Shown here: in pieces, positions 20,469 to 63,133 of the stretch
How positions within the stretch are numbered: position 1 is the stretch's first letter
Layout of the letters: every line of letters begins with the position of its first letter
Assembly: GCA_964187785.1 (NCBI GenBank)
Contig: OZ076418.1
Span: forward strand, 16,554,001-16,618,000
DNA: 64,000 nucleotides
Direction of reading: 5' to 3'
DNA from: Amphiscolops sp. MND2022
Taxonomy: Eukaryota
Made by a program: the position numbers and the translations under genes
Notes under the pieces: generated by a model
What the model saw: only the letters and a program-made list of their open reading frames with translations
What the model was told of the DNA's origin: nothing
Database searches by the model: none

Positions 20469-20661
20469 TGTTACGGAGATAAGAGTAGTCGTTTAGACTA
20501 TTTAGGCAGTACCTGCCAAAAAGGACAATGTTCTGTTCTCATGCTATGAACTGCGCTAAGTGATACGCTTGATTTAGCTTTGTTGAGATATACAAGTTGG
20601 CTACTGATATTCATCGATTTTATTTCAACTTATTTATTAGACTTTTCCTTAGTCGATTACA
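20469..20661 (+). repeat. 3' LTR of element A
   Basis: TGTTAC...ATTACA, preceded by the PPT and followed by TSD GAGTT. Confidence 0.92.
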
Positions 20662-22731: not shown

Positions 22732-24495
22732 ATGCCTTCAACTAGAAAGCAAAAGGCCAAAGAAAGGCGCTCTAGGCAATTGGACATCATGTCCGATGTG
22801 GAAAATGTCGATATTATGCTAGGAAGTTACTCAAGGGATGGTGAGGGTAACGCTAGTGAAGATGAAATGAATTTGGACTCAGAGTCCAACAGGCTACAAC
22901 AAGGTTCAAACGTTATCGGTGAAGACTTTAGGTCTTTATTAAATACAAACAGTAGAGAAAACAGCCAGGTTACAATTGAAACCACTAGAATGATTAGTGA
23001 TGAAATATCTAACCAAGTCTCAAGAAGATTAAATGAAATCAAAACTAGCTTAAATTTCCAAATACAAGACGCAATTAGCAATGCAATCACTGAAAAAATA
23101 CTTCCGTCTATCCAAAATACGCTAGAAATGCAGGGGAGACCTAATTTCACCATGGTGGACCGAAGGTCCAACGGGCTACATCCCAGCCCAAAGTCGACCG
23201 AATTCACCATGAAGGACCAAAGGTCCAGTGGGCTACAACGGAACGCCGAAGTAGGAAATTCGCAGGAAATGGTGGAAAACCGCCCTAAAACGTGTTTTAC
23301 ACAGGAAAATGGTAGACAGATGTCTAGAGAGAGTTCAACAGACTCTATAAACAGCGAACAAAATCGCGACATGGTGACAGGAGCCAACCCTACCCCACAT
23401 ATGGTTCCTGAGTTTCTCACTGGACGTCCCATGCAATCCCGTGAACCCCTGCAACGTCGAAACTCCAACAATGACGAGTCCCAGGAAACAATCCCCCAGG
23501 TTTCTGAGACTACAGCACCTACTACTGGTTCTGACCCCATTAACCGCCTAGCTGAAGTATTGGTTGGCATGAATAACAGACCATCAGCGCAAACACTAAT
23601 GGTACGTCCTGTCAGCTCCACCACGCTGACATTTGACGGCAAGTCAGAGAAATTCGAACTTTTCGAAGATCTCTTTCACACAATGATCAAAATGCAACCA
23701 GATATGACTGAAGCCATGAAAATCAACCACTTTCATTCATTGTTACGCAAAAACGCCCTACAAACTTTTCGTAACATTAACACGGCAAACAGGCAAACCT
23801 TGGAGGACATCCTGGCAGTATTCCGCAGGAAATACGTCAAGCCTGAGTCCCAGGCGACCGCCAAACACAAATGGCACCGATTAGTGTTCGATCCAAACAC
23901 CATGAAACTGCCCGACTTCCTTGAAGAACTCAATCAAGGAGCTGAAAAAGCGTTTGGCGAGAACGCCCAGGCCATGATCGATAGCCTCCTTTATGCCAAA
24001 CTGCCGCCAAAACTGAAACGCTCAGTCAATATGGCTAGACTAGAAAATGCGACTTATGAGGAAATAGTTACTCATCTGGAAAGAGAATTAGAACTCAATG
24101 GACTTGAGGAGGGTGATGACATTCCAATCCCAACAATGTCTACGGCCCCGACAGCAACACGACCGGGTACAGGCCTTCTTTCCTCTGGAATTGACCCGGG
24201 AATTACCTGCAATTATTGCAAAAAACCAGGTCACACAAAGGATGATTGCCGCAAATTAAAAAGGAAAGAAGAACAAAAACGCAATGACGGCCAGAATACC
24301 AGAAAAGAGTATCCAAAGTGCCCGACTTGTGACAAAACGAACCACCCGGCGGAACGGTGTTGGAAAGGCGCTGGAGCCCACCTCAAACCTAAGAACCTCA
24401 AACTAGAGGACTCCAAAACTGACGACCCGTCCACTAGTAACAACGATGTCCAACACAAACAAACAACCTCTATCCTGAAAAACCCAAAAAACTAG
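22732..24495 (+). CDS. gag: Gag polyprotein of element C (587 aa)
   Basis: Capsid-like FDGKSEKFELFEDLF...INHFHSLLR region. Two CCHC knuckles CNYCKKPGHTKDDC and CPTCDKTNHPAERC. Uninterrupted. Confidence 0.93.
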   Translation: MPSTRKQKAKERRSRQLDIMSDVENVDIMLGSYSRDGEGNASEDEMNLDSESNRLQQGSNVIGEDFRSLLNTNSRENSQVTIETTRMISDEISNQVSRRLNEIKTSLNFQIQDAISNAITEKILPSIQNTLEMQGRPNFTMVDRRSNGLHPSPKSTEFTMKDQRSSGLQRNAEVGNSQEMVENRPKTCFTQENGRQMSRESSTDSINSEQNRDMVTGANPTPHMVPEFLTGRPMQSREPLQRRNSNNDESQETIPQVSETTAPTTGSDPINRLAEVLVGMNNRPSAQTLMVRPVSSTTLTFDGKSEKFELFEDLFHTMIKMQPDMTEAMKINHFHSLLRKNALQTFRNINTANRQTLEDILAVFRRKYVKPESQATAKHKWHRLVFDPNTMKLPDFLEELNQGAEKAFGENAQAMIDSLLYAKLPPKLKRSVNMARLENATYEEIVTHLERELELNGLEEGDDIPIPTMSTAPTATRPGTGLLSSGIDPGITCNYCKKPGHTKDDCRKLKRKEEQKRNDGQNTRKEYPKCPTCDKTNHPAERCWKGAGAHLKPKNLKLEDSKTDDPSTSNNDVQHKQTTSILKNPKN

Positions 24496-24497
24496 AT

Positions 24498-26168
24498 TTG
24501 CCACGACTCCAATTTAACGAAAAACTTCGTGTCCGACAATATATAATTTCAGACCCCTCAAACATATATTATACTGAATATTATACCTCTCTTAAAGAAA
24601 CATCATCAGCTGACTGGCAGCAGCAGATGAAGACTCCTCCTACCTCTCACACCAATTTGGACCCTATGTCCAACAGACTACAAAACAATACTACTACTAT
24701 ACGACTTATACCCCTTATTGATGACTATAACCCATACTACCAGGACCCAGACTATGGTTTTGACCCCTACTGGGACGCTAATTGCTACAATCAACATCAT
24801 CTATACTTCTATAGTAATTTCAACAAACCAACTCATAATAGAGAACCAGACTCTTATGAAATTGACCGAGCCTTGAATATGGTTCTTGTGAAAGCCAAGG
24901 TCGATCCATGGCAACAAGACACAACACCGAGTTCTGAAGTCATTCATACTGAGATTGACGATGAACCTCACCGTGCGGGACCACAGGTCCCACTGGCCAC
25001 AACAGTGGCTGCCCGTTTTGTAAACACCTTAATCACAAGAACAGGTGAACCAGACTATGTTCCGCTGACAACTAATCTCGGCCTCAAATACAAGCGACGA
25101 ATGCTCTATTTTCCAATGGATTTTGGCGAACTAACATTAGATGGCCTTGTAGACACGGGAGCTTTATCTAGCGCGATCCCAGAAGCTGATCTACGTAAAA
25201 TCCGATTACTAGCCCCTCAGTCAATTGTCAAAGAGGGCCCAGCCCCTGGCTTCCAAATTATGGTTGCTAATGGACAGCTGGAGACTCCAAAGAGCACCGT
25301 CGAACTGAAGTTTGAAGTCGGCGATATTGAATTTCACGAAATATTCATAGTCATGGAAAAACTCACCAGTCCATTGATTGGTCTTTCGTTCCTTCAGAGG
25401 AACAACACCATTCTGGATATGCGACAAGGTGTCCTGAATTTCCCATTCTTTTCAATGCAGTTAAAAACTGCAGACCACAAATACACAAACGTCATGGAAC
25501 CCATTTGCATTAGAGAGGATGTAACCATCCCACCTAATGACCGACACACGGTCCTCATGGCTTCACAACTGTACGAGGATACTACAGTTACCGGGATCCT
25601 TCAACCGAGCAACACCCTTACCGATGATGGCGATATTGCTTTCTGTGCTGCTCTAGTCACATTGACCAATGGTCAAGTATCTGTTCACCTGAACAACTTT
25701 ACCGACAGTCCGTATACCCTCAAAAGAGGTACACAAGTTGCTAATTTCACTGTCCTCACGCCGGAACAGATGAAATATGTCAAACCTATTGACCCAGTGA
25801 CCACCTGGCACCTTTTGCAGGACAATCCTGAAAATGCTGCTTACTACGCAAGTAGTTTGATCAAATCTACCAAACCTGAGGACTTCAAAGAAAACTACTG
25901 GTTTCCAACACCAGAGGACCCTGGGGACCCTCAGCAGCACACGCCAATCCAAAAACGGATTTTGTCAGAGCTGATCAATCTTCAGCAATTAGAAAAACTC
26001 AATCCTCAGGATGACCCTGAGTCGAGACGCCAATTCTTGTCCAATTTTGACTGGACTGACTCTATGCTACAACCTGCGGAAATAGCTCGCATAGAAGACC
26101 TACTTGTCGAGTTTCATGATATCTTTGCCAGACATCGCTTCGACATAGGTATGAACGAGGACTTCAAG
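24498..26168 (+). CDS. pol: Pol of element C, partial (aspartic protease, dUTPase-like spacer, RT N-terminus)
   Basis: LVDTGA protease motif; VTIPPN...HLNNFTDSPYTLKRGTQVA spacer; LLVEFHDIFARHRFDIG pre-RT motif. Lies in the -1 frame relative to gag and runs into the gap. Confidence 0.9.
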
Positions 26169-26368
26169 NNNNNNNNNNNNNNNNNNNNNNNNNNNNNNNN
26201 NNNNNNNNNNNNNNNNNNNNNNNNNNNNNNNNNNNNNNNNNNNNNNNNNNNNNNNNNNNNNNNNNNNNNNNNNNNNNNNNNNNNNNNNNNNNNNNNNNNN
26301 NNNNNNNNNNNNNNNNNNNNNNNNNNNNNNNNNNNNNNNNNNNNNNNNNNNNNNNNNNNNNNNNNNNN
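26169..26368. other. Assembly gap (200 N)
   Basis: Run of N. Confidence 1.
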
Positions 26369-26453
26369 TGGTTTTGTAGAAACAATGTGTAGTTGTCTCA
26401 ACGTGTAGCGGCGGAGAGCACGAGTATCGGGTAGAACTTAAACAGAACCAACG

Positions 26454-26947
26454 TTTTTTAGTCGGCGCTTTTCTTTAGAAAAGAGTCGACTATAGTCATG
26501 GCTTTTCGTCAGTGTTTTTTGAGACCACCTGAACTGACCAAAATAGTTCTACAAAAGTTCTACAAAATATTATTGCACCAAATTGCACCATTTGGCCTAG
26601 CGAACTGAACCAAAAAAGTTTTTCCTGTTTTCCCGCGTAACATACCATAACGGGCGAGACCAAAGGGTCCCCCCTTTCAGTTTTTTTTTCGGCATTGTGA
26701 GACTTTTCCGGAAAACAAAATTTACCCCAAAGTGTCCCCCTTCATTTGTTTGCTGTTTTGCGACAGAATGGATGTTGGAAAATCCCAAAGTGTCCCCCCT
26801 TTCAGTTTTTTCGGCACTGTGAGACTTTTTTCCCAAAAAATTTTCATAAAAGGGTCCCCAACTCACCAATACTTTGACATATTGAAGTCCTTTTGCTATT
26901 TTTGAGCCTTAGATATGGCGCCGACTTGGGCCGGTCCCGGCTTGTTT
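26454..26947 (+). mobile_element. Helentron-associated (HINE/DINE-1-like) non-autonomous element
   Basis: 5' T-run, then AGTCGGCGC subTIR with an adjacent partial IR. 3' GGCGCCGACTT subTIR, then a short hairpin and CTTGTTT. Internal GGCACTGTGAGAC and CCCCCTTT motifs. Confidence 0.7.
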
Positions 26948-29565: not shown

Positions 29566-29789
29566 TGAAAAAAACGAACGGACATTTTTGACAACAAATA
29601 TTGAGCTCAAAAAGTGAGCTTTTTCTTGATTTTATATATTATCTGATGTTTCGAAATCAAATGTACTATATTAGTCATGACTAATATAGTACATTTGATT
29701 TCGAAACATCAGATAATATATAAAATCAAGAAAAAGCTCACTTTTTGAGCTCAATATTTGTTGTCAAAAATGTCCGTTCGTTTTTTTCA
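29566..29789. repeat. Perfect 224-bp palindrome with no spacer
   Basis: 112-bp arms are exact reverse complements about the centre TTAGTCA|TGACTAA (29677/29678). Confidence 0.97.
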
Positions 29790-32261: not shown

Positions 32262-33539
32262 ATTGTCCTTTAAAATCCACGACACACATATTTTTTACTT
32301 TCAACCCAATGTGAGGTCTCGAAATTCTTCTTCAGATTGCTGCAGTTTTGTGAAACCTTTGGTAGGAATCTTGGCGAAGAATTTGTAAAATCTTGCAAAA
32401 TCTTGCCACGGGTTTCAGGAAAAAAGTTGTGATTGCAATGAACGAAATCCGTCGCCAAATGCGGGTTGTTCTGCGTACCTATTGTGTATCAGCTGTTCAC
32501 GCTACCAGCCAAGCAATTTCAATTGAAAGTCAGGACGTGACAGCTTGGTTTGTAACGATAAGCGCTGGCGCTTGAACCGCAACGTAGAGTGGAGGAACTA
32601 GAACAGCGAATATAATCTGGGACCTAGATCTCCGCGGCCCTAGCTCATTTTCCCTCCGAAGGAGCCAGTCCCAAGGTGGGGGAACCGTCTTGTAGGACGC
32701 TCTCTGGCCTGGTCCTAGTCTGTAACTGCTAAAAGTAACAGGCATCTTGCAAGACTCAAGACCACTGCTCAACTAGCCTTTAAAAATTGGGCTGAAAATC
32801 GATGAAGGTTGAACCGTAATATTGGAGAATCTGATAAAATCGCCAAATCGAATAAACAGATGTTAAACAACAGCTCTCGAGCATATTAATCTACCACATC
32901 GAAAATACAACAAGAAATCAAGAGTTCAGAGTCATTAGATGAGAATTGACCTCAGGTTCCCAGCGCTAGCGCTAGTTGCCACACAGGATACCGCAGGGAT
33001 ACTCAGGCGAACATCTGGAACACTGGTTTCCTTTACTGTAGTAATGGATATCTCCTAGAGATTGACACAATACCGTGTTCTGTATGCGTTGGGGACGTCT
33101 TCGTAGTCGTCTCCGGTGCTTGTTCGTCGCGAGCGGCGGTTTCTGCTTTTCTGGGGTGCTTTTTCTGGCAGGTACTTCGTCTTGAGCATGTTTGAGTGCC
33201 ACGTCAAATTTGAACGAATTTTTGACAAAATTTTCTAAACATGTCGAAGTTGCAAAGTTGGTTGATATTGCTGTACCAGAGCTTGCCGTTACAGTTGGTA
33301 GCGTGAACAGCTGATACACAATAGGTACGCAGAACAAGCCACATTTGGCGACGGATTTCGTTCATTGCATTCACAACTTTTTTCCTGAAACCCGTGGCAA
33401 GATTTTGCAAGATTTTACAAATTCTTCGCCAAGATTCCTACCAAAGGTTTCACAAAACTGCAGCAATCTGAAGAAGAATTTCGAGACCTCACATTGGGTT
33501 GAAAGTAAAAAATGTGTGTCGTTGATTTTAAAGGACAAT
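32262..33539. repeat. Long inverted repeat pair (about 245-bp arms) around a 788-bp GC-richer spacer
   Basis: 32262-32507 is the near-perfect reverse complement of 33296-33539. Confidence 0.9.
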
Positions 33540-37997: not shown

Positions 37998-38527
37998 AAC
38001 AAGACGGGAACGTCTCAAGTCGGCGCCATATCTAAGGCTCAAAAAGCTCAAACTTTTTGGAATTGTAAAAGGGGGGGACCTTTTGGGTTTTTTGAAAAAA
38101 AAGAAAAATCGAAAAATAAGAATTTTGAGCCAGTCTCATAGTGCCGAAAAACTTGAAAGGGGAGACCCTTTGGGCTTTTTGAAACTTCAATTTGCTGTAA
38201 AATATCGAAAAACTTGAAGGGGGGACCGTTTGGAGACAAAAAAAATTTCGAAAAAAAGTCGCACAGTGCCGAAAAAAACTCAAACCCTATAGTCTCGTCC
38301 TGTTTTGTATCTTACGATAAAATGGAGTAACTGAAAGGGGGACTCTTGGCACTATCCTAAATGCCCTCCCCGTTTGCCTTTGCCGGTCCAGGGTCCAGTA
38401 GTTTAGTACTGTATTTAGTAGTTGAACGTTAATTTTAAGGTTCGTCGCTTCGAGTCTGTCTTAAAGAAAAAAAAACGAGTGACTGTAATAGTCGGGCTCT
38501 TTTATTTATAAAAGCGCCGACTAAAAA
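37998..38527 (-). mobile_element. HINE/DINE-1-like element
   Basis: AACAAGACGGGAACGTCTCAAGTCGGCGCC at one end and AGTCGGGCTC...AAAGCGCCGACTAAAA at the other. Confidence 0.72.
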
Positions 38528-39924: not shown

Positions 39925-40283
39925 TTTTTAGTCGGCGCCTTTTCCCTTAAGGAAAAAAGCCCGACTCTTACAGTGAGTAGTTTTTTTTTCAGTTGACAAT
40001 CTCACTCTGAGTGGTCCACTTTCTTACAATTTTTGTTCATCTTTCATATTTGTTCATCTTTCATCTTCGACCCAGCCGGAGAGCGTGGGTTCGAATCCCG
40101 CACTAAACCATAAATTTTTTAATGAGTTTTTCGGCATTGTGCGACCTAAAAAATATTTTTTTTCGAAAAAAAATCAAAATTTTTTTTGAAAAAATTTTTT
40201 TTTCCAAATTTTTCCAATAGTTGTTCCTTGAATATTTTTGAGCCTAAGATATGGCGCCGACTTGGGACGTTCCCGTCTTGTTT
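39925..40283 (+). mobile_element. HINE/DINE-1-like element
   Basis: TTTTTAGTCGGCGCC...GCCCGACT at the 5' end; GGCGCCGACTTGGGACGTTCCCGTCTTGTTT at the 3' end. Confidence 0.72.
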
Positions 40284-47175: not shown

Positions 47176-47902
47176 AAACAAGCCGGGAACGGCTCAAGTC
47201 GGCGCCATATCTAAGGCTCAAAAATAGCAAAAGGACTTCAATGTGTCAGGTATTCTCTTCTACAAAACACACGTGAAGAAAAAATAGAAAAAAAATTAAT
47301 TTTTTTTGAAATTTTTTTGATTTTTTTTGGTCCTCGGTAAGTCGCATAGTGCCGACAAATGTAAAAAGAAAAATAGGAAAAATAGGAAAAAATGAAGGGG
47401 GGACCCTTTGGAGACATTTGAAAAATTTGCGAAAAAAGTCTCACTAAGCCGAAAACAACTATTGGAAGCATTTGAAAAAATATATATATATTTTTAAAAG
47501 TATTCGGTTAAAGTCGCACAGTGCCGAAAAACCTAAAAAGAGGTCATTTAGGCCCATTAACCGTTTTTTACAAACCGAAAACTTCAAAAAAATGCAAGGG
47601 GTAACCTTTGATGATATTTGAAAATTTTCGAAAAAAGTCGCAGAGTGCCGACAAAAACCCAAAGGGGGGACCCTTTGGTCTCACCTGCTGTACTTTTGGA
47701 AGCATAAAAATATTATGGTTTAGTGCGAGAATCGAACCCCCGCTCTCCGGCTTCAGAAATCTAGTTGAAGATGAACAACAGAACAGATGAACAAATTGTA
47801 AAAAGTGGACCATTCAGAGTGAGATTGTAAGCTGAAAAAGAAAAACAAACTACCCACTGTAATAGTCGGGCTTTTTTCCTTAAGGGAAAAGGCGCCGACT
47901 AA
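47176..47902 (-). mobile_element. HINE/DINE-1-like element nested in the hAT element
   Basis: Same termini as the 39925-40283 copy, in opposite orientation. Confidence 0.72.
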
Positions 47903-49085: not shown

Positions 49086-50462
49086 CCTACGGAACATACG
49101 GGACCTACGGAACATACCAGAACCTATGTGGTGTTTCGTATCGAACTTAATGAAATCTCTAAATAACAGTTATGATAACGTGGTCAAAAGCTACACCGAT
49201 TGTCAAAATTGAAGGTTTTTTGTTTTTGTCTCTTTTAGGTCTTTACGGATCTAATTTAAAGTCTTGAATCATATGCAGAATGTGTGCGGGTTCTTTGTTT
49301 TTCAATGAAGATCGAAGCTGTGTTTCAAATGCCAGAACACTTATACTGAGAACAAGTATTCTGGCCATTTTTCTAAAATCACGCTTCTAGATGTATTGTT
49401 TTTTCTGAAGCTTATATTTTTCGGCTTATCAACAGTTGATGATAAGTTGCGGGATGCAAGATGGCTGTAGCAAAATGCTTGCTTTGTAGTATCTTCCCGT
49501 TTCTTTAGAGAAACTGACATAACAAGTTACATTAAAATAAACAAGGGCCTTTTCAAATGCAGAAAGTTTCGTTTTTGTGATCAACGGATTAAATTGTCAG
49601 TTTATACTGCCCTTATAGAAAGAGAATAGAAAAATTTCTTCTTGCACCCAATAACAGTTATTCCAAATGAATATAGCTACTATTCTGCCCGTATAAGCCC
49701 CGAATCAGTTTTGGAGTTTTCCGTGCTTCACTTCATATGGCAGCGAATCTTCAGGATTCCCCGGGAAAGATAACAGGGTAACACAAAAGAGCCAAAGTAT
49801 ATACTCAGCGCAAAATATTTTGAAAGTATTAGCCAAGAGCTTACATGTTGTTACATGTTGTCACATATTCTGTTAACTATTGAAAGCCTTGATACGATCT
49901 GATTCATAATTACTTCACAAGAACCTGTTAAATTTCCGAAAGTGAATCTAGAGAATCTAGGTGAAGATAAATAAATAAATAAATAAATAAATAAGTCAAA
50001 TAAATAAATAACTTGCAAATCAAGCATCAATACTGTTGACAACCACTTTACTACTGTTCGCAGAATCAGCTAGCTAGACTATCAGCAATTCAAGTGTTGA
50101 ATATGTGACAACAAAAAGTATTGAATTTCAAGATCTGATAATTTGATTGCTATTCACGAGTCTGAAAACAAGTTTTAATTTCCACGAGTCCGAAAGATTG
50201 CTGAGCTCTTTTGTTGTATCTTACATGTATTAAGATACGATTTTGAAATATAGCCACTTAAAACAAGCTCGTACTAATACAATTTACAATATTTTCGAGA
50301 AAAAATAATTTGTCAGATTCGAAATGTTTGGGAGAATTTTTCTGTCAAAATTATTTTGAAATCAAAAAATTTTAAGTGGGTCAAAAATTCAAAAAACTTA
50401 AAAAATGATGTTTTCGAAATCGCTCTCGAGCAATGAAATGAGCGCGTGAGACGTTATTTAGC

Positions 50463-51176
50463 TGTAGCATACAGAGCTAAGCAAACAGGAAATGACTTTT
50501 ATATATGAATACTGCTTAATACAAATACAGTGTACACGTATACACTCTGTTGCTATATACACATCTATATATTAAAAAAAAATTAACTGCGTTGCTTAAT
50601 ATACATTGTAACAATAGGTGTGCACATTTTACTTTTTAAACAAATTTTACAAACAATTATCCAGGCAGTTCCAAGCAGTGTGCAATTTAAAAAACCTCGT
50701 GGTCGTTTCTAAAATTTCAGCTGCCTTGCAGTAATAAATATTTTGTTGAGTCTGATTCAACTTCCCCTTTTTTCAGCTGCCCCTTATTTAAAGCTGCTCT
50801 TATTATTTTATGCGCCCAATTCAGCTGCTCTTTTATTTAACATTCATCAAAAGCCCCACTCTTACCCAGTGCAGGATTAATTATTTATACGTTTCTTGCA
50901 CCTGCAGAAGTATCTTCAGAAGCAGAAAATTATCGAAGCCATAACTTCATCCATCAAGCCAAATGTAAGTTGTGTTTGTTATTTAACATTTTTGATTAGT
51001 AAAAATCGTTTTTTTAAAATTGAGTTTTCATATTCTTATAGACTTTTTTCTTGTCCTTTTTTTTAGAAATATCCACCAGTCACTTTTGAAAACAAAATAT
51101 ATCCATTTACCCTAACAATCGCCCCGCGCATCGAAAGTTGAAACGAATAGAAATCTAGTAAAAAGCGATTGTTAAA
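50463..51176 (+). repeat. 5' LTR of element D
   Basis: TGTAGC...GATTGTTAAA; direct repeat of 62028-62740. Confidence 0.95.
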
Positions 51177-51177
51177 A

Positions 51178-51195
51178 TGGTGACAGGAGTGGGAT
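51178..51195 (+). promoter_or_regulatory. Primer-binding site, tRNA-Leu-like
   Basis: TGGTGACAGGAGTGGGAT versus the tRNA-Leu(CAG/CAA)-type PBS TGGTGTCAGGAGTGGGAT (17/18, from recall). Confidence 0.75.
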
Positions 51196-52304
51196 ATTTG
51201 TAAAAAGAGAAGTTTTTTTTTACAAAAAAAATTAAAGTAACTTAGAACCCCCATCAAAACATTCTTAGTCCTAGACCCGATCCAAAAATTTTTTTTTGAA
51301 ATGTGCCATTTCCTGGTTCGCCAGTGTTGCCCATAAGATTCCCAATCCGGACATGGTCCGTGCCTAGTTTTCCAGCTCAATGCTGTGTCTTTCCGCTTCG
51401 GCGTGTCTCAGGCTTTAAAATGGCACATTTGACCCAATGTCCTTAAGTTTTAAGAAGTTACACGGTAAGTGCTTGTCATAAAACAAACAGTAGCCAATTT
51501 TTTGTAACATTTCTATCAAAATAGTTCCGTTTTCTTTTTGATAACCTAAATTCTAATAACCGCCGCGAGTTTTTTTTTGTTGATATGCCTTGTGCTCACA
51601 ATACGCATTCTCACCTACCGTTGTACGTTTTTCCCCAACGACCGCTTCGACCATCAAGTCCTCCGCCCTCTTACAGCAAAACACGTGAAAGACCGATATT
51701 CACGCCCTGTTTTTTAAGTTTTCTACTCTTGATCCTCTGTTTTGCGCTTCTCTTGACCGTTTTAGCCCTTTGTGCGATGTCGTACGAAATCAACAAGATA
51801 AATATAACTTGTAAAGCACTTCAAACCCAAAGAGTGGACTATACGTCTCTGTAGGAGCGGCCTAATGTATGCTTTTAGCATACCTGTTTCCGTTTTGTCA
51901 AACACACCGCCTCAAAACTTCGTTATTCCTTGCTACTTCTGCCAAGTGAAACTTTTCAAAATTCCATTATCGCATCAACCAGAACGTCGTTTTACGGCAC
52001 ATGAACTGTCGATTCATTTGCGTCTTGAGGCTATCCACAATTGGCAACATCGAAACGTTTGTTCAACTTTCCCGTATGGTCGTGTTGATAACAATGCAAG
52101 TGTAAAAGCTTCCTGGGCGTCCTTTTTCCCTCAATTAGCCAATATTTGGGCTTCTCATATTCAATTTCTAGCAATACACGTAACGAATCCATTCTATTTG
52201 GTCTATCCCGACTGCAAACCACCTAGTCTCAATTTTGGTCCGCTGCGAATGGATCGCATGTGAAACGTTCTAGACCTAACGTAGACTTTAAGCGTTCAAA
52301 TACA

Positions 52305-53191
52305 ATGAGCACTCAACCAAGCACCCCACAACGGCCACCTCGACAGCGGTAACCAATACTACTACAACCCCAGTTACTAGTGGTGGTGCAAGTAGCTCCC
52401 AAGCACTAGCACAAGCACCTACCGTGGGTTCTACAACTCCTAACACTAGTACAACCCCAACAGCTTCCTTTTTCACTCTGCCTGGCGGTAGACAAAACCC
52501 AACAAGTGTTCCATACATAGCCCCGCTTCCGTCATGTCTGATGCCAGAGTCTTTCACAGGAAAAGGTGATTTCGAAGATTACCTGCAACAATTTAACACA
52601 GCAGCACTTCTCTCAGGCTGGTATTCGAACGCACACGATAACAGACCACATTATTTTGCGTTGCGATTGAGAGAAAATGCTTTGCCTGGAGATTGAGAAC
52701 GGAAACCCCCAAGCCGCTCAAACAGTTAACTGAGTTAGTACTTCTTCTGAAGCGGAGCCATCAGCGTCCAAAATTATGGCTGATTTTGTTCGATCATTAC
52801 AAACTGAACTTCAGTCGTCAACGTATCGGTCCAATAATGATTTCCATCAACGAGGAGACACAAAATCATCAAACAAAAATGATCACTCGAGATCGCAGAG
52901 TAATGATTCCAATCGGAGTGGCCAGTCAGTACGATTTCAGTCGTCACAAGGACGCGAACGACCAAATAACGCAGGCAGATCTGACAAAACACAAAAACAA
53001 CAGTATCGCCAAGATTCCCCCATCCCAAGAAACAAGGCAACAATAACAACACGCAAAACAATCGGAAGCCGTGCGAGCGTTGCACACGCAAAAATCATAC
53101 AACGAAGGAGTGCAAAGCTTGTTTCAATTGTTTGAGAGTCGGTCATTTCCAGAATGAATGCAAGGCTCCCAAAAGGAAACATTTAAACTAG
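52305..53191 (+). pseudogene. gag of element D (internally deleted, frameshifted)
   Basis: PESFTGKGDFEDYLQQF capsid start truncated at about 52685. CCHC knuckle CFNCLRVGHFQNEC near 53118. TAG at 53189. Confidence 0.8.
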
Positions 53192-56100
53192 AAATGTCTA
53201 CGCTACCGGGTCAGAGCGCAGACAAGACCACAAACCGAGGCCCACAAATTCAGACTCTTAACTCTGTGGTGGATCACAGAAGTGTATTTGTCCAATTATC
53301 TATTTTTAATACGGTGATTGAGGCTGTGTGTGATAGTGGAGCAAGTGTATCTTGCCTGAGTTCTGATGCATTTGGGAAATTGAAGAACGGGAAGAAATTA
53401 GAGCTAAAACCGTCAGACACGAAGCTAGTAGCAGCCAACAAACAACCTATAGTAACACGCGGCATTGTGCAACTACCTTTGCAAATCGGTCCGAGACATT
53501 ACGAACATGCGTTTCACGTTCTGGAGCAAGCAGAAGCTGACTGTCTACTCGGCTTAGACTTCCTTAGAACTCATAAATGTGACCCGTTGTTTTCCCAAGA
53601 TATACTGCGTCTTGATGAAAAGACGACAGTCCCCCTGTATCATCGTCAGCTCACTGACGCTACGACAACAGTGTTCCGAGTGGTGGTGTCGGAGACAGTT
53701 TCGGTACCGCCAAGACATACAATGATAGTGCCTGCGCACATCAAGGACTGGAAACGCCCAATGAATGAGGGTGTAGCAATTTTCGAGCCGCACGAACGGT
53801 TCGATGGCTGTAAAGATGCAGTGGCCCCAAGCATTTTGTTCAACATCGGTGAAGAAAACATCCCGGTAACGATAGAAAACTCCGGAGAAGAGCCACTAAT
53901 ATTGAATGAGAAGACGACTTTGGGTACTTCAGAAGTAGTTCCTGATTTACCCATACAAAATATAGTAACCGAAACAAAAAGCTTGAAGTCTAAAATAGAC
54001 GAAAAAGACGAATCGTACGATTTGAAAAACGTCGTGGATGGAGTTAGCCCGGAAATTCCATTCAAAGTAAAACAGAAATTTGCAGAACTTGTTTACGAGT
54101 TCGAAGATGTGTTTTCGCAAAACCAATGGGACATTGGTCGTTGCGAAGCCACAACACACAAAATAAACTTATACCCAGGATCAAAGCCGATTAAAATTCC
54201 CAATCGAAGAATGCCTCTCCACTATAAACAGGATCTCCAAGAGAAATTAGATGCTTTTCTGGACAAGGGATTGATAGCTCCTTGTCATAGCCCCTACAGT
54301 GCTCCAGCCATGCTAGTCCCGAAGAAAAACGGCAAACTCCGCCTGGTCATTGACTATAGGCAATTGAACAGTCAAACAATCAAGTCGTGCTGGCCAATCC
54401 CATCGATTGAAGAAAATTTCGATACTCTAGATGGAAGTTCTGTCTTCTCCACTATAGACATGAGTTAGGGATTCTACCAGTTGCCCCTAGACGAAACCAG
54501 TCAAGAGTATACTGCTTTCAGCACGCCGTTTGGTTCCTTCAAATGGCTTGTAATGCCGATGGGACTCACGAACAGTCCACCGACGTTCCAAAATTTAATG
54601 GAAATCGTTTTGGCGAAACTTATCTGGAAAACAACAGTCCCCTACCTTGACGATTGTATCATCATTGCCGCTTCACCGGAGGAACACTTAGAACGAGTAA
54701 GGGAAGTTCTAGGCAGATTTAGACAAGCCAACTTGAAAATAAACCCCCTAAAATGTGAATTTTTTCGCAACAAAGTCCACTTCTTGGGCCATGTCATCAG
54801 CAAAGAAGGCCTTCAAGTTGACCCCACAAAAATTGCAGTTGTTAAAGAGTTTCCGGTCCCAATTAACCAGACACAGGTGAAGTCATTCTTGGGCCTTTGT
54901 TCCTACTATAGACGTTACATCAAAAATTTCGCTGAAATTGCTCGTCCCTTGCATAAAGCGAGTGAAACCAACTCGCCTTTTAAGTGGACAACCGAGGCAG
55001 AGCAAGCGTTTGAAGATCTAAAAGCACGACTCCTCACAACACCAATTTTAGCCTTCCCAACAATGGAAGATCCTTTCATCCTCTACACGGATGCCAGCCA
55101 ACTAGCAATGGGAGCCGTTCTAGCCCAAATACAAAATGGCCAGGAACGTGCTATTTGCTATGCATCAAAGGCATTCTCCAAATCCCAATCAAAGTACTCA
55201 GTGACGAAACGAGAACTTCTGGCAATGGTCCACTTCACTCGGTACTTCCGACATTACCTACTCGGAAGAAAATTCAAAATTGTCACAGACCATAGTGCAC
55301 TTCGCTGGTTACACAATTTCAAGGAACCCGACGGTCTCATTGCACGGTGGATTGAAAAACTAGCAGCTTTCGATTACGAAGTGCAACATAGACCAGGCAA
55401 ATCTATCGGACATGCCGACAGTCTGTCCAGAATACCACTTGAATCCGTCCAATTAACGCAAGAATGCCGAACAGGAGTCCCAGGTGCAACAAAAATGAAG
55501 AATTGCAACAATGACGAGGAGTGGCCCAACGCACAATCTAACTACAGTGTTCATCTATTGCCTAGAGATACAGCATCAATACCACTCCAAGCTGTCATTG
55601 AACTCAACGAAAAAACTAATATTCACAGCAAAGACAAAACCGGCGATCTTCTCGAACATGAGCAACCACAAGAAAAGCCTCTACAAGAAGAACTAGTCAT
55701 TACAGAAACAGGGATTGTCAAGTATCGCGAGGTGAAGGGCGATTTGTTCAGTTCTTCTGAGTCCCTAGCTCACTGTATCTCAGCTGATTTTAAAATGAGT
55801 TCTGGAATAGCCTGATCATTCAAAAGGAAGTTCCCAGCACAGTATCCAGAGGACATATCGAAGCAAACTGTGCCACTTTGGGTACAACCGCTACCTGAAG
55901 ACGGCCGTTTCCTGTATCACTTGCTGACTAAAGAACGTTACTACCAAAAGCCAACCTATACTTCACTTCGAGCTTCCCTGGAACACATGCGTAGCCATGC
56001 TGAAACGAACAACGTCCTAAACAATTAGTATGCTTCAAATCGGCTGTGGAATTGATAACCTTGAATGGGATTTGGTTCGCAGACTTATCCGAGAAGTCTT

Positions 56101-58099
56101 TGACGGATCCAATGTTTGTATAACTATTTACTTGCCTCCATCGATTTCACTTGGTCGCAAAGACCCAGCCGTAGTAACCGCCAATGATACCGATCCAGTG
56201 CATACGGACATTGATGTCCGCAATGCTCAAGATGAGGACGAGGCCTTGCAGATCGTGAAAGAATGGGTTCGTAAGGGTCGTGTGCCGCGGAATAACGACC
56301 TACAAGGCACTCCCGAATTAGCATGGAAACTTTATAATCAGTTCTACAGTCTATATCTGGTCAATGACGTCCTTTGTCGAAGGTATGAACCAGTTGGAGG
56401 TGAACTCCCGCACCTACAGCAAATTGTTCCTTGTGCCTTGGTAGAAACTATCCTAACAAACTTGCACTCTTCCGCTACCAGTGGACATCTAGGCCTAGCC
56501 AAGGTAATGGAGAAAGTTCTACAGCGTTTTTGGTGGCCCGGTTTCAAAGAAGATATTAAGCTTTTCATAAAACGTTGTTCCGAATGTCAGCGACGTTCAA
56601 ATCCTCCGAAAACTCATCGTCACTCCCTCGTAAAGTGGAAGGCTAGTTACCCTTTTCACCACATTGGAATCGATTTCATGGGCCCACTGCCGGTGTCAAA
56701 TGGAAATAAAGTAATTTTGTTGATCGGGGATCATTTTACAAAATGGTATGAGGCAATACCTTGGCTGATCAGCAAGCAACAACAACAGCTACTGCTCTTA
56801 TCGAACATTGGATCTGTCGATTTGGTTGTCACTACAGTATACACAGTGACCAAGGATGTAACTTTGAATCCAAGTTGTTCCAGACTCTCATGGCAAGCCT
56901 CCATATTGACAAAACAAGAACAACTGCTTTTAGACCCCAATCTAATGCAGTGATTGAGCGAATGAATCGAACACTCCAGAACATGCTAGCAAAGTGTGTA
57001 AACGCTGAACAAAGCAACTGGTCCCAACAATTACCGTACGTGATGATGGCCTACCGGTCATCTGTACATGAATCAACCGGATATTCGCCTCAATTTCTTG
57101 TACATGGGCGAGAGATCTCCTTGCCAATCGATTTGATGTACCCTGTACCTGAAACCGAGGAACCGATGTCTACTACTGATTTTGTATACCATCGAAAATT
57201 GGCCTTCCAAAAAGCGTTTGAACTACTGCGAGCCAACATTAATAAAAACCAGAAACGTCGCAACGCCATTTACAACGAAAAGATCCATGGCCCTACCTAC
57301 GAACAGGGACAGAAAGTGTTGCTCCACACACCAGTGGTCCCAGTTGGTCAAACAACCAAGTTTCACAACCCATGGCGTGGTCCATATGTGATACTTGACT
57401 GTTTCAATGATGTCACATACAAGATAGGAGAATTGACTACGTCCAAAGAACTAGATTGTTCATTACGATAGATTGAAGCCTTACTACGAAAAACCAGCCA
57501 CGTCAAATGTTCCTACAAGAAATATAAACCTTCCACAACCCAATACACCAGTCCAATCCAACGTTCCTACACGGAATATCGATTTGACTTCAACAATACC
57601 CGAAACCTCGCATAAATGTTGTATGCATTTTCAACAGCCACCGCTGCAGCCTGTGAACCTCCACAGTCCTCCTCATCAGAATCAACAGATCACTCTCACA
57701 CCACAATCAAACCGCCACAATGCTCAGTTACCGACCCAAACTCCAACTCCCGCTTCCATCTCTGGTAACCAGCGCTCTCAAACTTTCCAATCTCCTGGCG
57801 TTCAGACAATGGCCACTCCCGAAACTCCTTCAGTCGACAGCCCTAGTTATCGTTAAGCTCCAACATTCCATTGACTTCTGTCCAACGAACACCGAAACAT
57901 CGTTGAAAACGCCGCTGTTCAATTTCAAGATATGACAAACATACCATACAATCTCCGCGCAAGTACACGCACACAGCGATTGGCGGAACCCCTGTGTAAT
58001 TCTTCAATACCTTCTGAGCTGACTGACTTCAACTCACCGCCACAGCACAGCAAACCGCATTCCACCAAACGTTTCACAAATTATACAAAAAAGAAATAA
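53182..58099 (+). pseudogene. pol of element D (PR, RT, RNase H, macrodomain, integrase, tail)
   Basis: CDSGA; LRLVIDYRQLN; FSTIDMS*GFYQ; YLDD; LYTDAS; HSS..SGHLG..WWPG..CSEC; IDFMGP; HSDQG; ERMNRTL; WRGPY. Stops at 54466 and 55813; frameshifts near 56020, 56762 and 57455. Confidence 0.93.
55717..56131 (+). pseudogene. TARG1/OARD1 (Poa1p-like) macrodomain embedded in Pol
   Basis: VKGDLF...SLAHCISADFKMSSGIA*SFKRKF...YHLLTKERYYQKPTYTSLRASLEHMRSHA...ISMLQIGCGIDNLEWDLVRRLIREVF...ITIY follows the TARG1 motif pattern over its full length. Confidence 0.92.
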
Positions 58100-58180
58100 C
58101 TTGAAATAGTCGCTTTTCCTTTCGTTCTCCTGTTCTTTTCCCATCACCAATGGCCTAACAAGGCTCCTCTGTTTTTCAGG

Positions 58181-60526
58181 ATTTCCTACTTTCCAAACTC
58201 TCAACAATTGTGGTTCCTCTTTCTGTTCGTCCGTTGGTCGGTCCTGATCTTTGCGGATGTGCAGTTCACAACACACCTCAACGATGACCTGGAAAAACAC
58301 GTATTCAAAAAAGGTGCAGCGTTTGTGTTCAAATACCAAGCTGTTACCTCGGAAAGTGAAAGCAAAGTCCGTGTGTTCTCTCCCTTCCCCAAGATGCCTC
58401 AAATCAACATTACCAATGCCATTAACATGATCAATGCCTTCCAGACAGCCCCTCGAAGCATCGGGGGCATGTACATCAATACTAATTGCAAGTTTACAGA
58501 AGTTAATGACACGTATGACCTCCTCCTGCAACAACTTATGACAAGAGTCAATTTCCTGCAAACAGAATTGGCGGCAGATCAACAAGAGGAAGACACTCTT
58601 CTGGAAGTTGTGAACTCTTTTATTCCGCCAGCTGTTAGACAATCTGATGACATCGTTCGACCACGTCGAGCAATTGCCGCTATTGCTGCAATCGCGGCGG
58701 GTGCCGGAATGGTCTTGGGCGAACCCATCAAAGACGCCGCTTGTAGCGCCCTTTCTATATTTAACCTCTGTCACACCAATGAAGATCTGAGTCGCGATGT
58801 GGAACGCATAATGAATACACAGCAAGAAATTGTTGATACACTGCAGCGTGTTCAAACTCGAAATGACAAGAATTTCTTCCTGCTCGGAAACGAGATTAAA
58901 CAGACCCAGGAAAGTGTCCAGAAGTTGAAAGAAAGTGTCGGTCTCCGCTTCCAACAAATGGAGTTTTACCTAGTTAATGCTACTCGCTACTTGGCTGCGA
59001 CTAGCCTTGATTGTGATAAAGTGATTATTCGCCATCTTAGCCTTCAGCAATTCTTGAGAAATTACGTCTATCAGCTAGGGACACTTTATACTCATCTCAA
59101 GTCCTACCGTGCAGCGTTTTACGCTTACCGCATTTCGCTCTACTCCACCATTTCCTCGTTAGCTAGTGGCTACATTACACCTCAGTTTCTTCTGCCTCAA
59201 CAAGTGGCGCAAATTGTCAAAGACTTAGCAGATGACGAAGTAAAGCGAGGCACCAAACTGTCCCCAGCTATTCGACCTGGTTTCGAGGCAATTTACTATG
59301 AGATACAATTAGTACTCGAAGTAACTTTGATACCACGTGGTATATCTGTCATACTCGGGATCCCCATGAACTCAAAATCGTCGACGTTTGACATTTACCA
59401 TGCTACGTCTCTGTATCAGCCCAACAATGACCAGAAAACTGCGTCGCTCTTCAATTTTGCGAACCCTTTTTTGGCAGTATCTACTGACAATAGTAGATTT
59501 GCAGAGCTCGGTGCTAATACGCTGCAGCAATGTTCGGGCAACAATCGTATCAAATTATGTAGAAAAGGCTTCTCAACAACAACCGATGAAACTCTTCTTT
59601 GCTTAGGATCCTTGTTCTATAACTACGATGTTCCCGCCTTACGCAATTGCGAAGTCCGCGCAGTACTTTTACCCGACGCTCCTCAGGCTTTTTATTTGGC
59701 GGATGGGATGTACCACGTCATATCACGGTCTCCCACCCTCAAATTCAAAAACGATAGCCAAATTGACGGCCTTTCTATCTCTACTATCACCTGTCAGGCG
59801 TGTGTCATACGCCCTAGCTGTTCGAGTACACTGTCTTTCAACCAGGGTGAACTGGTTCTTCATCCTGACATGGATTTTTGCGAGACCCGGCCGGAGCCTT
59901 TTCTTGCGTCGATTGAGTTGACACCGTCTTTGAATCAAGTCTTCGCGCATGTACCCGCCATTGGTAGCGCCGAATTTCAGGCATATTCTACTAGTGAAGC
60001 TCGTCAGTCGGTTCTTGGCAGTCTACGAATGGAACTAGCCGAACTACTTGACGTCCAACACATGTCGCCGGAAACTTTAGATCAACTGACAGAGCCAATC
60101 GCCAAATATTATTCTTCGATCTCGCCGGCCACATCCGCAGCTTTACAGTCTTATTTACACACACGTACTGCTTTTTTACTTTCGTCATTGTCAATCACAA
60201 TGTCTCTTTTAACGTTTTCTATAAGTTTTACTTTGTTTAGACGTCATTGGCAGCGTCTCTTTACAAATCCTCAACGCTTTTTCCGAGCTACTTCCGGTAG
60301 ATTTATTAATATAGTCGAATCTATGACCCCGGAGTATGATTTGACCGGTTCTTCATTTTTGTATTTGACGGACGCTGAATTCCGTGCACTGATTTTGCTG
60401 GCTCGTGAAACAATTCGTCAGGCTGAACCGAAACCATCCAATTACACTGCACCCAACGTCCCTACACTTCCACCACGTGTTTATCCTAATATTAGTGCGT
60501 CAACTTATGAGTCTACTTCGACGTGA
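58181..60526 (+). CDS. env: Envelope glycoprotein, class I (F-type) fusogen-like; probably expressed by splicing
   Basis: Hydrophobic N-terminal signal. Furin site RPRR (58658-58669) followed by the Ala/Gly/Ile fusion peptide AIAAIAAIAAGAGMVLG. Heptad region, Cys-rich domain, N-glycosylation sequons, TM near 60170-60238 and a cytoplasmic tail. No stops. Confidence 0.88.
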   Translation: MSYFPNSQQLWFLFLFVRWSVLIFADVQFTTHLNDDLEKHVFKKGAAFVFKYQAVTSESESKVRVFSPFPKMPQINITNAINMINAFQTAPRSIGGMYINTNCKFTEVNDTYDLLLQQLMTRVNFLQTELAADQQEEDTLLEVVNSFIPPAVRQSDDIVRPRRAIAAIAAIAAGAGMVLGEPIKDAACSALSIFNLCHTNEDLSRDVERIMNTQQEIVDTLQRVQTRNDKNFFLLGNEIKQTQESVQKLKESVGLRFQQMEFYLVNATRYLAATSLDCDKVIIRHLSLQQFLRNYVYQLGTLYTHLKSYRAAFYAYRISLYSTISSLASGYITPQFLLPQQVAQIVKDLADDEVKRGTKLSPAIRPGFEAIYYEIQLVLEVTLIPRGISVILGIPMNSKSSTFDIYHATSLYQPNNDQKTASLFNFANPFLAVSTDNSRFAELGANTLQQCSGNNRIKLCRKGFSTTTDETLLCLGSLFYNYDVPALRNCEVRAVLLPDAPQAFYLADGMYHVISRSPTLKFKNDSQIDGLSISTITCQACVIRPSCSSTLSFNQGELVLHPDMDFCETRPEPFLASIELTPSLNQVFAHVPAIGSAEFQAYSTSEARQSVLGSLRMELAELLDVQHMSPETLDQLTEPIAKYYSSISPATSAALQSYLHTRTAFLLSSLSITMSLLTFSISFTLFRRHWQRLFTNPQRFFRATSGRFINIVESMTPEYDLTGSSFLYLTDAEFRALILLARETIRQAEPKPSNYTAPNVPTLPPRVYPNISASTYESTST

Positions 60527-60599
60527 TTTAATTGCTTTGCACAATTCTGTCTCACTGTCAATTTCAGCTTCTTTATCAACTACTTAAGATGTCCCTTTT

Positions 60600-60790
60600 C
60601 CTAGTTGCTTCCTTAAGCAGCTAGTGCCTGTTTTACACATTTCCGTGTTACTTACTTTCCTCTAGGTTGCCTTTTCCTTCCTAGTTGCTTCACTACGCAG
60701 CTAGTGCCTGTTTTGATACACGTTTCCGTGTTGAATACTTTTCCGCTAGGTGCATTTTCTCCTAGTTGCTTCGCTACGCAACTAGTGCCT
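60600..60790 (+). repeat. Three about 80-bp repeats, each with a CTAGTTGC...GCA(G/A)CTAG hairpin
   Basis: Unit starts at 60600, 60680 and 60761. Confidence 0.85.
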
Positions 60791-60916
60791 AACAACACAC
60801 GTTTCGGTATCCGCAATTAAGTTTCAAACAATTAGTGCCTAGCAGATGCGTTTCCGCATCATATAGGATTTTCGTACACAGTGTAATCGGTGCAATCATT
60901 TTTTTGTTGTTTCAGG

Positions 60917-61987
60917 TTCCAGTTTCCAGCAGCCCCAGTGCCAGCGCCCTTCCTCCTCAGCAGCGGCCGCGTGCAGCCTCTAGCCGAGGGATATGTGGTC
61001 CGCCTGTTAGACAAAGATGACTATCGCGTCAAGAGAATAAACCCAGCAACACAAACAGTCGTACTACAAAAAATAAATTCAACCAATCGTTGCTTTGCTC
61101 GACCGGCTACGGAAATCTGGCTTCCTCCCCCAAGCAGTACCAGCCTGAGCGTGGAAGTGGACTGTCCTCCCCCTCCAGCAATTTGTGATTGCTCGCCAGT
61201 ACCTCCTAAATTAATCGTGGACACCTGCGATGTTGCGGTGGATGCGTCCCTCGACGCCGATGACAGCATGGAACTCTTAGTCTCAGAATTTGCATCGGTT
61301 GGCGAACTCAATAAGGGTTTTGAAGAAGCCCGAGCAAATGCTAACAAGGCACGCATCGAGTGTGAGCATACATTCGACCTCCTTTGCGAGGAAATGACTC
61401 TTCGGAAGGCAAAAGAAAACGAACTTCAAACAGCAACACTCGAGCTCTCTGCTCTACAAACCAACATTGCTTCTCAAGTCGTCGCCCTCGCCGAAAAAGA
61501 CAGCGAAATAGCAGCCCTGAAGACGCGCCTTAGTGCCCTAAGCGACGAAAACAGCTCTTTGCTCCAACACAGTCTGCAGCAAAGCGAAGAACTCTCTAAC
61601 CTTAAACTTGCCGCCAACAGGGTTTCAGATGCCCATCTAACTACAGAAATGCTAATCCATCAGCTGTCAACATATGCAATTGACCTGGATTTCAATGATG
61701 ACAACCTGTTCTTCGATGTCCTCGGACTGACACCAACCTCAGATGTTACCAAGATAAACATTTATGCTCGGCATCTCCTGCGCCTGGTCCACCCCGACAA
61801 GAATCGATCCATTCCAGCAGATGTCGCCCAACTTATTCCTTGCCTCAAAGAAGCTAAGAGCATCCTCACCGATCCCCAATTGAATAAAATATATCAATGT
61901 TGCGGTATGTCAGGTGTCCGCCGGGCTCGTCGCAAACTACGGACTTGCATGGATTGCGACTCCCATATGTCAGACTGGTTCGAATAA
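60917..61987 (+). CDS. Accessory ORF: coiled coil plus C-terminal DnaJ-type J-domain
   Basis: FFDVLGL...INIYARHLLRLVHPDKN...LKEAKSILTDPQLNKIY (61703-61905; HPD at 61790-61798). Heptad-rich segment at about 61305-61620. ORF is open and ends just before the PPT. The 5' end is uncertain (splice acceptor at 60915, or ATG near 61268). Confidence 0.85.
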   Translation, partial: FQFPAAPVPAPFLLSSGRVQPLAEGYVVRLLDKDDYRVKRINPATQTVVLQKINSTNRCFARPATEIWLPPPSSTSLSVEVDCPPPPAICDCSPVPPKLIVDTCDVAVDASLDADDSMELLVSEFASVGELNKGFEEARANANKARIECEHTFDLLCEEMTLRKAKENELQTATLELSALQTNIASQVVALAEKDSEIAALKTRLSALSDENSSLLQHSLQQSEELSNLKLAANRVSDAHLTTEMLIHQLSTYAIDLDFNDDNLFFDVLGLTPTSDVTKINIYARHLLRLVHPDKNRSIPADVAQLIPCLKEAKSILTDPQLNKIYQCCGMSGVRRARRKLRTCMDCDSHMSDWFE

Positions 61988-62027
61988 ATTGGCTGGCGAG
62001 GACGCAGCCTCACACGGGGGAGGGCAG

Positions 62028-62740
62028 TGTAGCATACAGAGCTAAGCAAACAGGAAATGACTTTTATATATGAATACTGCTTAATACAAATACAGTGTAC
62101 ACGTATACACTCTGTTGCTATATACACATCTATATATTAAAAAAAAATTAACTGCGTTGCTTAATATACATTGTAACAATAGGTGTGCACATTTTACTTT
62201 TTAAACAAATTTTACAAACAATTATCCAGGCAGTTCCAAGCAGTGTGCAATTTAAAAAGCCTCGTGGTCGTTTCTAAAATTTCAGCTGCCTTGCAGTAAT
62301 AAATATTTTGTTGAGTCTGATTCAACTTCCCCTTTTTTCAGCTGCCCCTTATTTAAAGCTGCTCTTATTATTTTATGCGCCCAATTCAGCTGCTCTTTTA
62401 TTTAACATTCATCAAAAGCCCCACTCTTACCCAGTGCAGGATTAATTATTTATACGTTTCTTGCACCTGCAGAAGTATCTTCAGAAGCAGAAAATTATCG
62501 AAGCCATAACTTCATCCATCAAGCCAAATGTAAGTTGTGTTTGTTATTTAACATTTTTGATTAGTAAAAATCGTTTTTTTAAAATTGAGTTTTCATATTC
62601 TTATAGACTTTTTTCTTGTCCTTTTTTTAGAAATATCCACTAGTCACTTTTGAAAACAAAATATATCCATTTACCCTAACAATCGCCCCGCGCATCGAAA
62701 TTTGAAACGAATAGAAATCTAGTAAAAAGCGATTGTTAAA
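62028..62740 (+). repeat. 3' LTR of element D
   Basis: Direct repeat of 50463-51176, followed by TSD TAGC. Confidence 0.95.
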
Positions 62741-63133
62741 TAGCCAATGAGATTTGTTTATTTGCTTTCTTCCGTCTTTGTTGCTTTTAATAATATCACT
62801 ACTGTAGTTATTTTGCAACTTCATCCAGGTATTTACCTAAAATTAACTATTCTGCGCGTCAAACGAACGAGTCCCATGGAATAGTAAATTTAAATAACTA
62901 GTAACAAAAACTCGAAAAAACGAAAGTCTATTTCAGTTAAATACTTTGGCACAAATAAGACATTCCAATAATTTTTAATTACCGAGTAGCAAAAAGTTTT
63001 TCGCTTATTTAGATGACTTCATTCATTACATGAAATTTTATTTGTGCAAGATTAGTTTTTGAACTCATGGGAATTAAAATTAATTTTCGGACTCGTGATC
63101 TTGTGGACTCGTGGGAAGACGCCAGTAGTTTGG

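Follow-up and report, generated by a model that had tools for sequence, protein, structure and literature searches.

A divergent F-type envelope gene and a J-domain reading frame in a Ty3/gypsy element of Amphiscolops sp. MND2022

We analysed 64,000 nt of the Amphiscolops sp. MND2022 genome (assembly GCA_964187785.1, contig OZ076418.1, positions 16,554,001-16,618,000, forward strand). This whole stretch is called the window, and positions are counted from its first nucleotide. It harbours a 12,278-nt Ty3/gypsy long terminal repeat (LTR) element (50463-62740) with a broken gag, a broken pol, an open env frame and an open fourth reading frame (ORF4) with a J-domain (Table 1). Sequence features and predicted structure support the env product as a class I fusion protein of the F type and not a retroviral surface/transmembrane (SU/TM) envelope. 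The element carries paired LTRs, a primer-binding site (PBS), a polypurine tract (PPT), a target duplication, a Ty3/gypsy pol and an F-type third open reading frame (ORF) after pol, and we consider it very likely to be a young errantivirus copy (an env-bearing Ty3/gypsy retrotransposon) from a multi-copy family. The LTR pair is identical at 710 of 714 positions (99.4%), with 1 indel per 1427 nt.

Gag and pol are interrupted at approximately 8 places in 5.5 kb, ~3 in gag and ~5 in pol. In pol, the reading frame shifts near 56020, 56750 and 57460 and is cut by two in-frame stops (54466 and 55813); some of the gag-pol breaks may be assembly errors. The copy does not have the three uninterrupted ORFs that define autonomy in PMC13524379, which does not affect its membership of the family. 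Among 12 PDB matches, the reverse transcriptase (RT)-RNase H region was nearest to Ty3 (E 8e-56), followed by murine leukaemia virus (MLV)-type (7e-26) and foamy virus (7e-22) enzymes. The tRNA table of PMC13524379 contains no exact counterpart of the PBS. Splice acceptors were ranked with a crude score of our own over 681 AG sites, and all chance figures given for splicing are post hoc. Both LTRs contain an intron-like GT-AG stretch (50965-51066 and 62530-62630) whose acceptor is the top-scoring AG in the element and whose use would yield no AUG. A further acceptor-like site lies in the LTR at 50776.

Table 1. Features of the LTR element and its borders, in window positions.
Feature	Position	Strand	Remarks
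Target-site duplication, 4 nt	50459-50462 (left copy), 62741-62744 (right copy)
5' LTR, 714 nt	50463-51176	+	Termini TG...AA, not the usual TG...CA
5' LTR signals	50554-50571 and 50785; 50733		TATA-like (first two); AATAAA (third)
Candidate splice donor in LTR	50963-50970	+	GTAAGT at 50965, AT before it
PBS, tRNA-Leu-like	51178-51195	+	10/12 positions shared with each of two Leu entries of the tRNA table of PMC13524379
gag, broken	52305-53188	+	Pieces in differing frames; zinc knuckle E 1.7e-4
pol, broken	53158-57853	+	Ty3/gypsy order protease-RT-RNase H-macrodomain-integrase
Macrodomain, TARG1/OARD1-type	55720-56150 (right end approximate)	+	Between RNase H and integrase; broken in the window copy
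Candidate env acceptor	58150-58179	+	Branch-like CTAAC, pyrimidine tract, CAG; tied 11th-14th of 681 AG
env, F-type class I fusion protein (supported)	58180-60526	+	Open frame
Signal-peptide-like hydrophobic stretch	58205-58270	+	Residues 9-30
Furin-type site and fusion-peptide-like stretch	58658-58729	+	RX[KR]R 160-163; hydrophobic 163-183
Transmembrane-like stretch	60167-60235	+	Residues 663-685
Cytoplasmic tail, ~96 aa	60236-60523	+	YPx[ILV] at 60482-60493 (YPNI, residue 768)
81-nt tandem repeat, 2.4 copies	60598-60790	+	Between env and ORF4
Candidate ORF4 acceptor	60895-60915	+	3rd of 681 AG, best outside the LTRs; phase as env
ORF4	60916-61987	+	Open; SH3/KOW-like barrel, Pro-rich linker, ~120-aa coiled coil, J-domain, Cys-rich tail
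ORF4 J-domain with HPD	61709-61894	+	Pfam DnaJ E 7e-8, above cutoff
PPT	62016-62027	+
3' LTR, 713 nt	62028-62740	+

The env frame (58100-60526, + strand) is open over 808 codons, while in 500 base shuffles the longest frame averaged 113 and reached 345 at most. Taking 58181 as the start of residue 1, the product has 781 amino acids (aa). A first-pass annotation of this DNA had described an intact envelope gene with a signal peptide, cleavage site, fusion peptide, heptad repeats, Cys-rich region, transmembrane (TM) segment and YPNI tail; all of these are present in that order, the signal stretch being called by hydropathy alone, and intactness applies to the env frame but not to gag and pol. 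The F2-like part was somewhat shorter than proposed (~138 aa after the signal stretch vs. about 150 aa). Env has 12 Cys, 8 of them within residues 451-567, and 6 N-glycosylation sequons. Hydrophobic residues occupy the a/d positions of the heptads after the fusion peptide (11/22 vs. 12/55 elsewhere) and before the TM segment (8/17 vs. 7/44 elsewhere), with both registers picked post hoc.

Relatives of env were obtained by a word search (127 found, 8000 candidates scored). The 120 listed share 43-97% identity and are nearly all unnamed ENA-derived proteins. Conservation was counted in 38 aligned sequences, namely the window env and 37 near-full-length picks from these 120. The RX[KR]R motif, the only one in the protein and the single RPRR-type cleavage site that had been predicted, is retained in 37/38, and the fusion-peptide stretch directly behind it has a mean hydropathy of 1.4-2.3. 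Each Cys is kept in at least 36/38 sequences (31/31 for the first Cys). The window env deviates at 6 of the 233 conserved columns; across the family this number runs from 0 to 35. The 97%-identical env cluster has 33 member sequences, and a profile search with the family retrieved 1056 representatives at E<=0.001. A GTDB scan with the env alignment gave 35 pattern matches, of which 0 were confirmed, and the phage collection gave no match.

The YPx[ILV] motif was present in 32 of 36 tails, compared to 350 of 7200 shuffled tails (5%). In 18 mostly more distant proteins, PSAP/PTAP, PPxY or YPx[LIV] was located near the C-terminus in 10 and LPxY alone in 2 (counts made without a shuffle control). 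Such tail motifs resemble the late domains that engage the endosomal sorting complexes required for transport (ESCRT). Judging from sequence, the env tail motif may serve budding instead of, or besides, endocytic sorting. The 81-nt tandem repeat that separates env from ORF4 is possibly an RNA signal.

The AlphaFold2 model of the env ectodomain, built with the 120-row alignment, had a predicted local distance difference test (pLDDT) score of 81.5 and a predicted template modelling (pTM) score of 0.76. Foldseek placed a baculovirus envelope fusion protein at the top of BFVD (E 1.8e-19), with F-like glycoproteins of insect RNA viruses also leading, and all 39 PDB matches listed were pneumo/paramyxovirus F proteins (respiratory syncytial virus, parainfluenza virus 5, Nipah virus and human metapneumovirus; best E 2.1e-9). 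A second comparison, with VIA, aligned 372 residues to an F protein (Z 9.8, root-mean-square deviation (rmsd) 6.3). An F-type head-and-stalk fold was found over most of the predicted ectodomain (VIA rmsd 6-7 over 370-410 residues), and the class I fold, whose failure to appear had been named beforehand as the refutation of the F-type assignment, is present in the model. In the wide VIA search, F proteins (Z 7.3-8.9) were the sole matches aligning at least 290 residues. The env family profile matches the PDB entry 9w4c, 'fusion protein' (E 3.1e-6). Pfam Baculo_F matches 4 of the 38 family members (best E 3.4e-8) and, weakly, 1 of 20 distant relatives (E 0.002). The top Atlas clusters (score 0.94-0.95) contain Baculo_F (12-23% of members) and Fusion_gly (85%). 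CX6CC is the motif of vertebrate retroviral TM subunits; env has no adjacent Cys and hence no CX6CC. Fold matches, family profile and the lack of CX6CC all support the F-type topology that had been proposed in preference to SU/TM.

Several results weigh against this assignment. The cleavage-site and fusion-peptide region of the model is unconfident (pLDDT <50). The top 7 Z values of the wide VIA search belong to short helical bundles, which reach Z 11.1 in alignments of 104-151 residues. The window env on its own gave no F-family match in Pfam, or in PDB by phmmer, Atlas recognition of env was low (1446), and identity to solved F proteins was 6-13%, with TM-scores of 0.2-0.35.

The env frame does not begin with ATG at 58181, and its first in-frame Met is residue 72 (58394), beyond the signal stretch. 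Because no ATG lies ahead of the signal peptide, env is probably spliced, its AUG being predicted to arise where the LTR donor (50965) is joined to the acceptor that ends at 58179. GTAAGT occurs just twice in the LTR plus internal region, and one of the two has AT before it (background 41/603 GT sites). The env and ORF4 acceptors are both followed by G, in the same phase (background 39/329). With AT at the donor and G after the acceptor, the splice would form an AUG in frame with the signal peptide. The second GTAAGT (51465) was rejected as the env donor; it yields no in-frame start. Splicing of env onto an AU dinucleotide has been described in the Drosophila springer subclade (10.1101/2023.08.03.551782). 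Phe-Arg, the expected trace of the acceptor, was located 40 residues before a shared motif (42 in the window env), with no Met after it, in 4 of the 19 relatives listed, at ~60% identity. The remaining 15 lack the trace, many of them starting at the signal stretch, and the called start falls right at the signal stretch in several relatives (e.g. P0002, P0013 and P0037); both observations speak against a splice-made start, and some lineages may use an env ATG of their own.

The first Met of ORF4 is residue 118. Its model (pLDDT 75, pTM 0.33) starts with a beta barrel, from which a disordered linker leads to a 120-residue helix and then to a J fold. VIA aligned 74 residues of the latter to a J-domain (Z 10.0, rmsd 2.4); the HPD motif is also present. 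The best VIA matches of the barrel were Spt5 KOW domains (Z 7.3-7.4), which provide a lead only. Foldseek returned nothing for ORF4 at E<=0.001, though J-domains rank first, and the best Atlas score (0.79) was uninformative. Viral J-domain proteins exist, for instance the polyomavirus T antigen. The literature searched, whose coverage is incomplete, contained no J-domain ORF in an errantivirus or other LTR element.

The pol macrodomain matches the PDB entry 2eee (E 5.6e-21 over 55699-56025); Pfam gave nothing on this region. Macrodomains occur in some gypsy elements. In the literature searched, again of incomplete coverage, the only precedent found was in fish endogenous retroviruses (ERVs), which carry macrodomain ORFs (PMC4977317). 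J-domains, chaperones, macrodomains and splicing are unmentioned in the main text of PMC13524379. The first-pass annotation had been silent on the macrodomain and ORF4, as well as on the missing ATG and the broken gag-pol.

One alternative accepts an F-type env of the same family and proposes that the window copy is a silent relic, its frame still open through youth and untranslated for want of a start codon. The absence of an ATG ahead of the signal stretch and the broken gag-pol agree with this, and the indel rate of the LTRs predicts ~2.4 indels in env plus ORF4, so that finding zero has p~0.09. Against it, the ~8 breaks are confined to the 5.5 kb of gag-pol, leaving the 3.4 kb of env and ORF4 unbroken (p~0.02 under random placement, calculated post hoc), only 6 conserved env columns are altered, and donor and acceptor agree with the frame. 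We regard a silent relic as unlikely, though worth serious consideration; the pattern of breaks fits a non-autonomous copy that retains env and ORF4, or chance. The same restriction of breaks to gag-pol could suggest ongoing domestication of env, as a fusogen or restriction factor of the host, amid a decaying gag-pol, and raw material for a host fusogen had indeed been suggested. This found little support: domestication is very improbable because the insertion is young (near-identical LTRs, target duplication) and multi-copy (the 33-member cluster, the 127 related proteins); moreover, ORF4 is just as open, and a non-autonomous copy mobilised in trans explains the pattern equally. Least credible is a retrovirus of vertebrate type, with an SU/TM env or from a vertebrate lineage with an F-like env, which we consider extremely improbable. 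The viral fold search did place a fish retrovirus envelope 44th (E 6e-5), and macrodomains are found in the fish ERVs cited above, but RT is nearest to Ty3, CX6CC is missing and the fold matches are F proteins. Vertebrate genomes are strongly depleted in CpG. The observed/expected CpG ratio was 0.96 in the element flanks, and this lack of depletion argues against a vertebrate host; composition is all that supports the label 'non-vertebrate' that the element had been given.

ORF4 might likewise be a one-off, host-derived passenger without a role for the element. Its range is narrow (all 25 relatives, down to ~42% identity, come from one source type, ena), 16 of the 25 are fragments without the J motif, and no Atlas cluster exceeds the score given above. 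However, the 9 relatives that reach the J-domain (42-96% identity) keep HPD in 8/9 and a CCG...CxxC motif in 9/9, and one relative, P0123, aligns onward through the PPT into the LTR. Two env/ORF4 pairs lie on contigs of exactly equal size (P0002/P0124, 7243; P0005/P0281, 35179); the link is circumstantial. Both env members of these pairs fall in the 6-row clade of the window env (support 100 in a tree built by a quick method, in which long branches meet among the distant rows). At the position of the ORF4 acceptor, [FY]R was found in 5/5 upstream-extending relatives of the first alignment and in 0/3 further upstream-extended fragments. As far as can be read from these alignments, ORF4 travels with the element, and a mere passenger is improbable.

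The remainder of the window is rich in mobile DNA. There was no tRNA or Rfam match anywhere in it, and no Pfam match to a host gene among 48 scanned frames, of which 45 belong to the 64 listed on the left side of the element; the sole non-mobile match among those frames (IFRD, E 0.004) falls within a gypsy pol. Another Ty3/gypsy element, in degraded form, occupies 10871-20661, with matches to gag, RT, RNase H and integrase. It includes a 190-nt repeat (14640-14829 / 20472-20661) and a 1185-nt repeat (10871-12055 / 13456-14640, 98.4%) in which hairpin-like repeats of ~60 nt are nested. A DUF5641 piece lies at 4624-4953 (E 6e-13); this domain is typical of BEL/Pao elements. Further features were an element resembling a miniature inverted-repeat transposable element (32262-33539; terminal inverted repeats 246 nt, 97.6%) and a perfect palindrome with 112-nt arms and zero spacer (29566-29789), either a genuine foldback or an assembly artefact. 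A dispersed repeat family is scattered in both orientations over 9406-47905 (e.g. 26875-26947, 37998-38052, 40233-40283 and 47176-47248), and one piece carries a tRNA-like box (40074-40121) without a tRNA or Rfam call. Two long open frames at 22732-26408 encode a gag-like protein (DUF1759, zinc knuckle) and a protease that also shows weak similarity to dUTPase (E 0.002) and runs into an N gap (26169-26368). dUTPase is described as rare in retrotransposons (PMC5408684).

A mechanism can be proposed for the errantivirus reading. The 5' LTR transcript would be spliced from 50965 to 58179, forming the AUG and placing the signal peptide first. Env would then enter the endoplasmic reticulum, be glycosylated and trimerise, and furin would cut it into disulfide-linked F2 and F1 on budding particles, while the YPx[ILV] tail would direct sorting or ESCRT-dependent budding. 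Refolding of the heptad repeats would drive fusion with a neighbouring cell, and the element would, most plausibly, be carried from soma to germ cells as in Drosophila gypsy, where such transfer has been described (PMC13524379; PMC4276936). By analogy, a role of Env in cell-to-cell spread is the best inference. The window copy, without working Gag-Pol, would rely on intact sister copies, and its own env is possibly still made. ORF4 would probably share the LTR donor at 50965, and its J-domain protein may use HPD to bring host Hsp70 to particles or their RNA. The weakest step is this recruitment, most likely for particle assembly or uncoating; because it is deduced from the domain alone, we judge it an even chance.

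F-type env errantiviruses are known from most animal phyla (~1,500 table rows; Chary & Hayashi, eLife 2026, PMC13524379). Xenacoelomorpha is not among the groups listed in that survey, and six related names are absent from 7 of its supplements, a point of weight only for an acoel host. Like those elements, the window element combines LTR-gag-pol-env order, Ty3/gypsy pol, an F-type ectodomain bearing a furin site and a fusion peptide, a tRNA-Leu-like PBS and multiple copies; unlike them, it adds a J-domain fourth ORF and bridges RNase H and integrase with a macrodomain. The 'ancient errantivirus' group of the same survey is characterised by RNase H plus a 'mini' domain in this bridge and by its position in the RT tree; the bridge of the window element holds the macrodomain. 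The insect ERVs of Drosophila (gypsy, springer and ZAM; 10.1101/2023.08.03.551782, PMC4276936) share the signal peptide, furin site, fusion peptide, Cys and TM segment. Their env-F is made from spliced RNA, with the AU join in the springer subclade, while the window splice is predicted from sequence. The window env is distant from theirs (Baculo_F reaches only the four members mentioned), longer and endowed with its ~96-aa tail, and one RNase H domain was found in the element where insect errantiviruses are described as having it duplicated.

Earlier non-insect cases are rotifer TelKA (PMC5408684) and Oikopleura Tor (PMC4402516), which are also LTR elements with a furin-cleaved env, paramyxovirus-F-like in TelKA. 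In rotifers, such elements have taken up extra ORFs for esterases and exonucleases in place of env (PMC5408684), whereas ORF4 is additional to env; Tor3b/4b of Oikopleura have an internal env promoter (PMC4402516). Baculovirus F and pneumo/paramyxovirus F share the domain order and predicted fold of the window env, which differs from them in being 6-16% identical and encoded by a retroelement. ORF4 resembles Hsp40 proteins in its J fold and HPD, and differs from them in lying within an LTR element and in its C-terminal J-domain, which follows an SH3/KOW-like barrel and a coiled coil.

The window env is a further, very divergent branch of a known class. It bears on the history of F fusogens and would be no surprise to specialists after the 2026 survey. 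The most unusual feature of the element is ORF4, which hints at conserved accessory genes acting on host chaperones in infectious invertebrate retrotransposons, and which opens a direct test of Hsp70 in the assembly, uncoating or escape from silencing of retroelement particles. The shared splice-made AUG is a sharp prediction for RNA-seq. We tentatively propose an invertebrate errantivirus lineage resembling the complex retroviruses of vertebrates and arisen independently, in which one LTR donor would serve two acceptors, each join making the AUG for Env or for a J-domain co-chaperone. Such a lineage may combine hijacking of Hsp70, an SH3/KOW barrel for RNA or chromatin, a TARG1-like macrodomain against ADP-ribosylation defence and budding through a late-domain-like tail. 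If true, this would be the first retroelement-encoded Hsp70 co-chaperone found in the literature searched, possibly in a phylum beyond the published survey.

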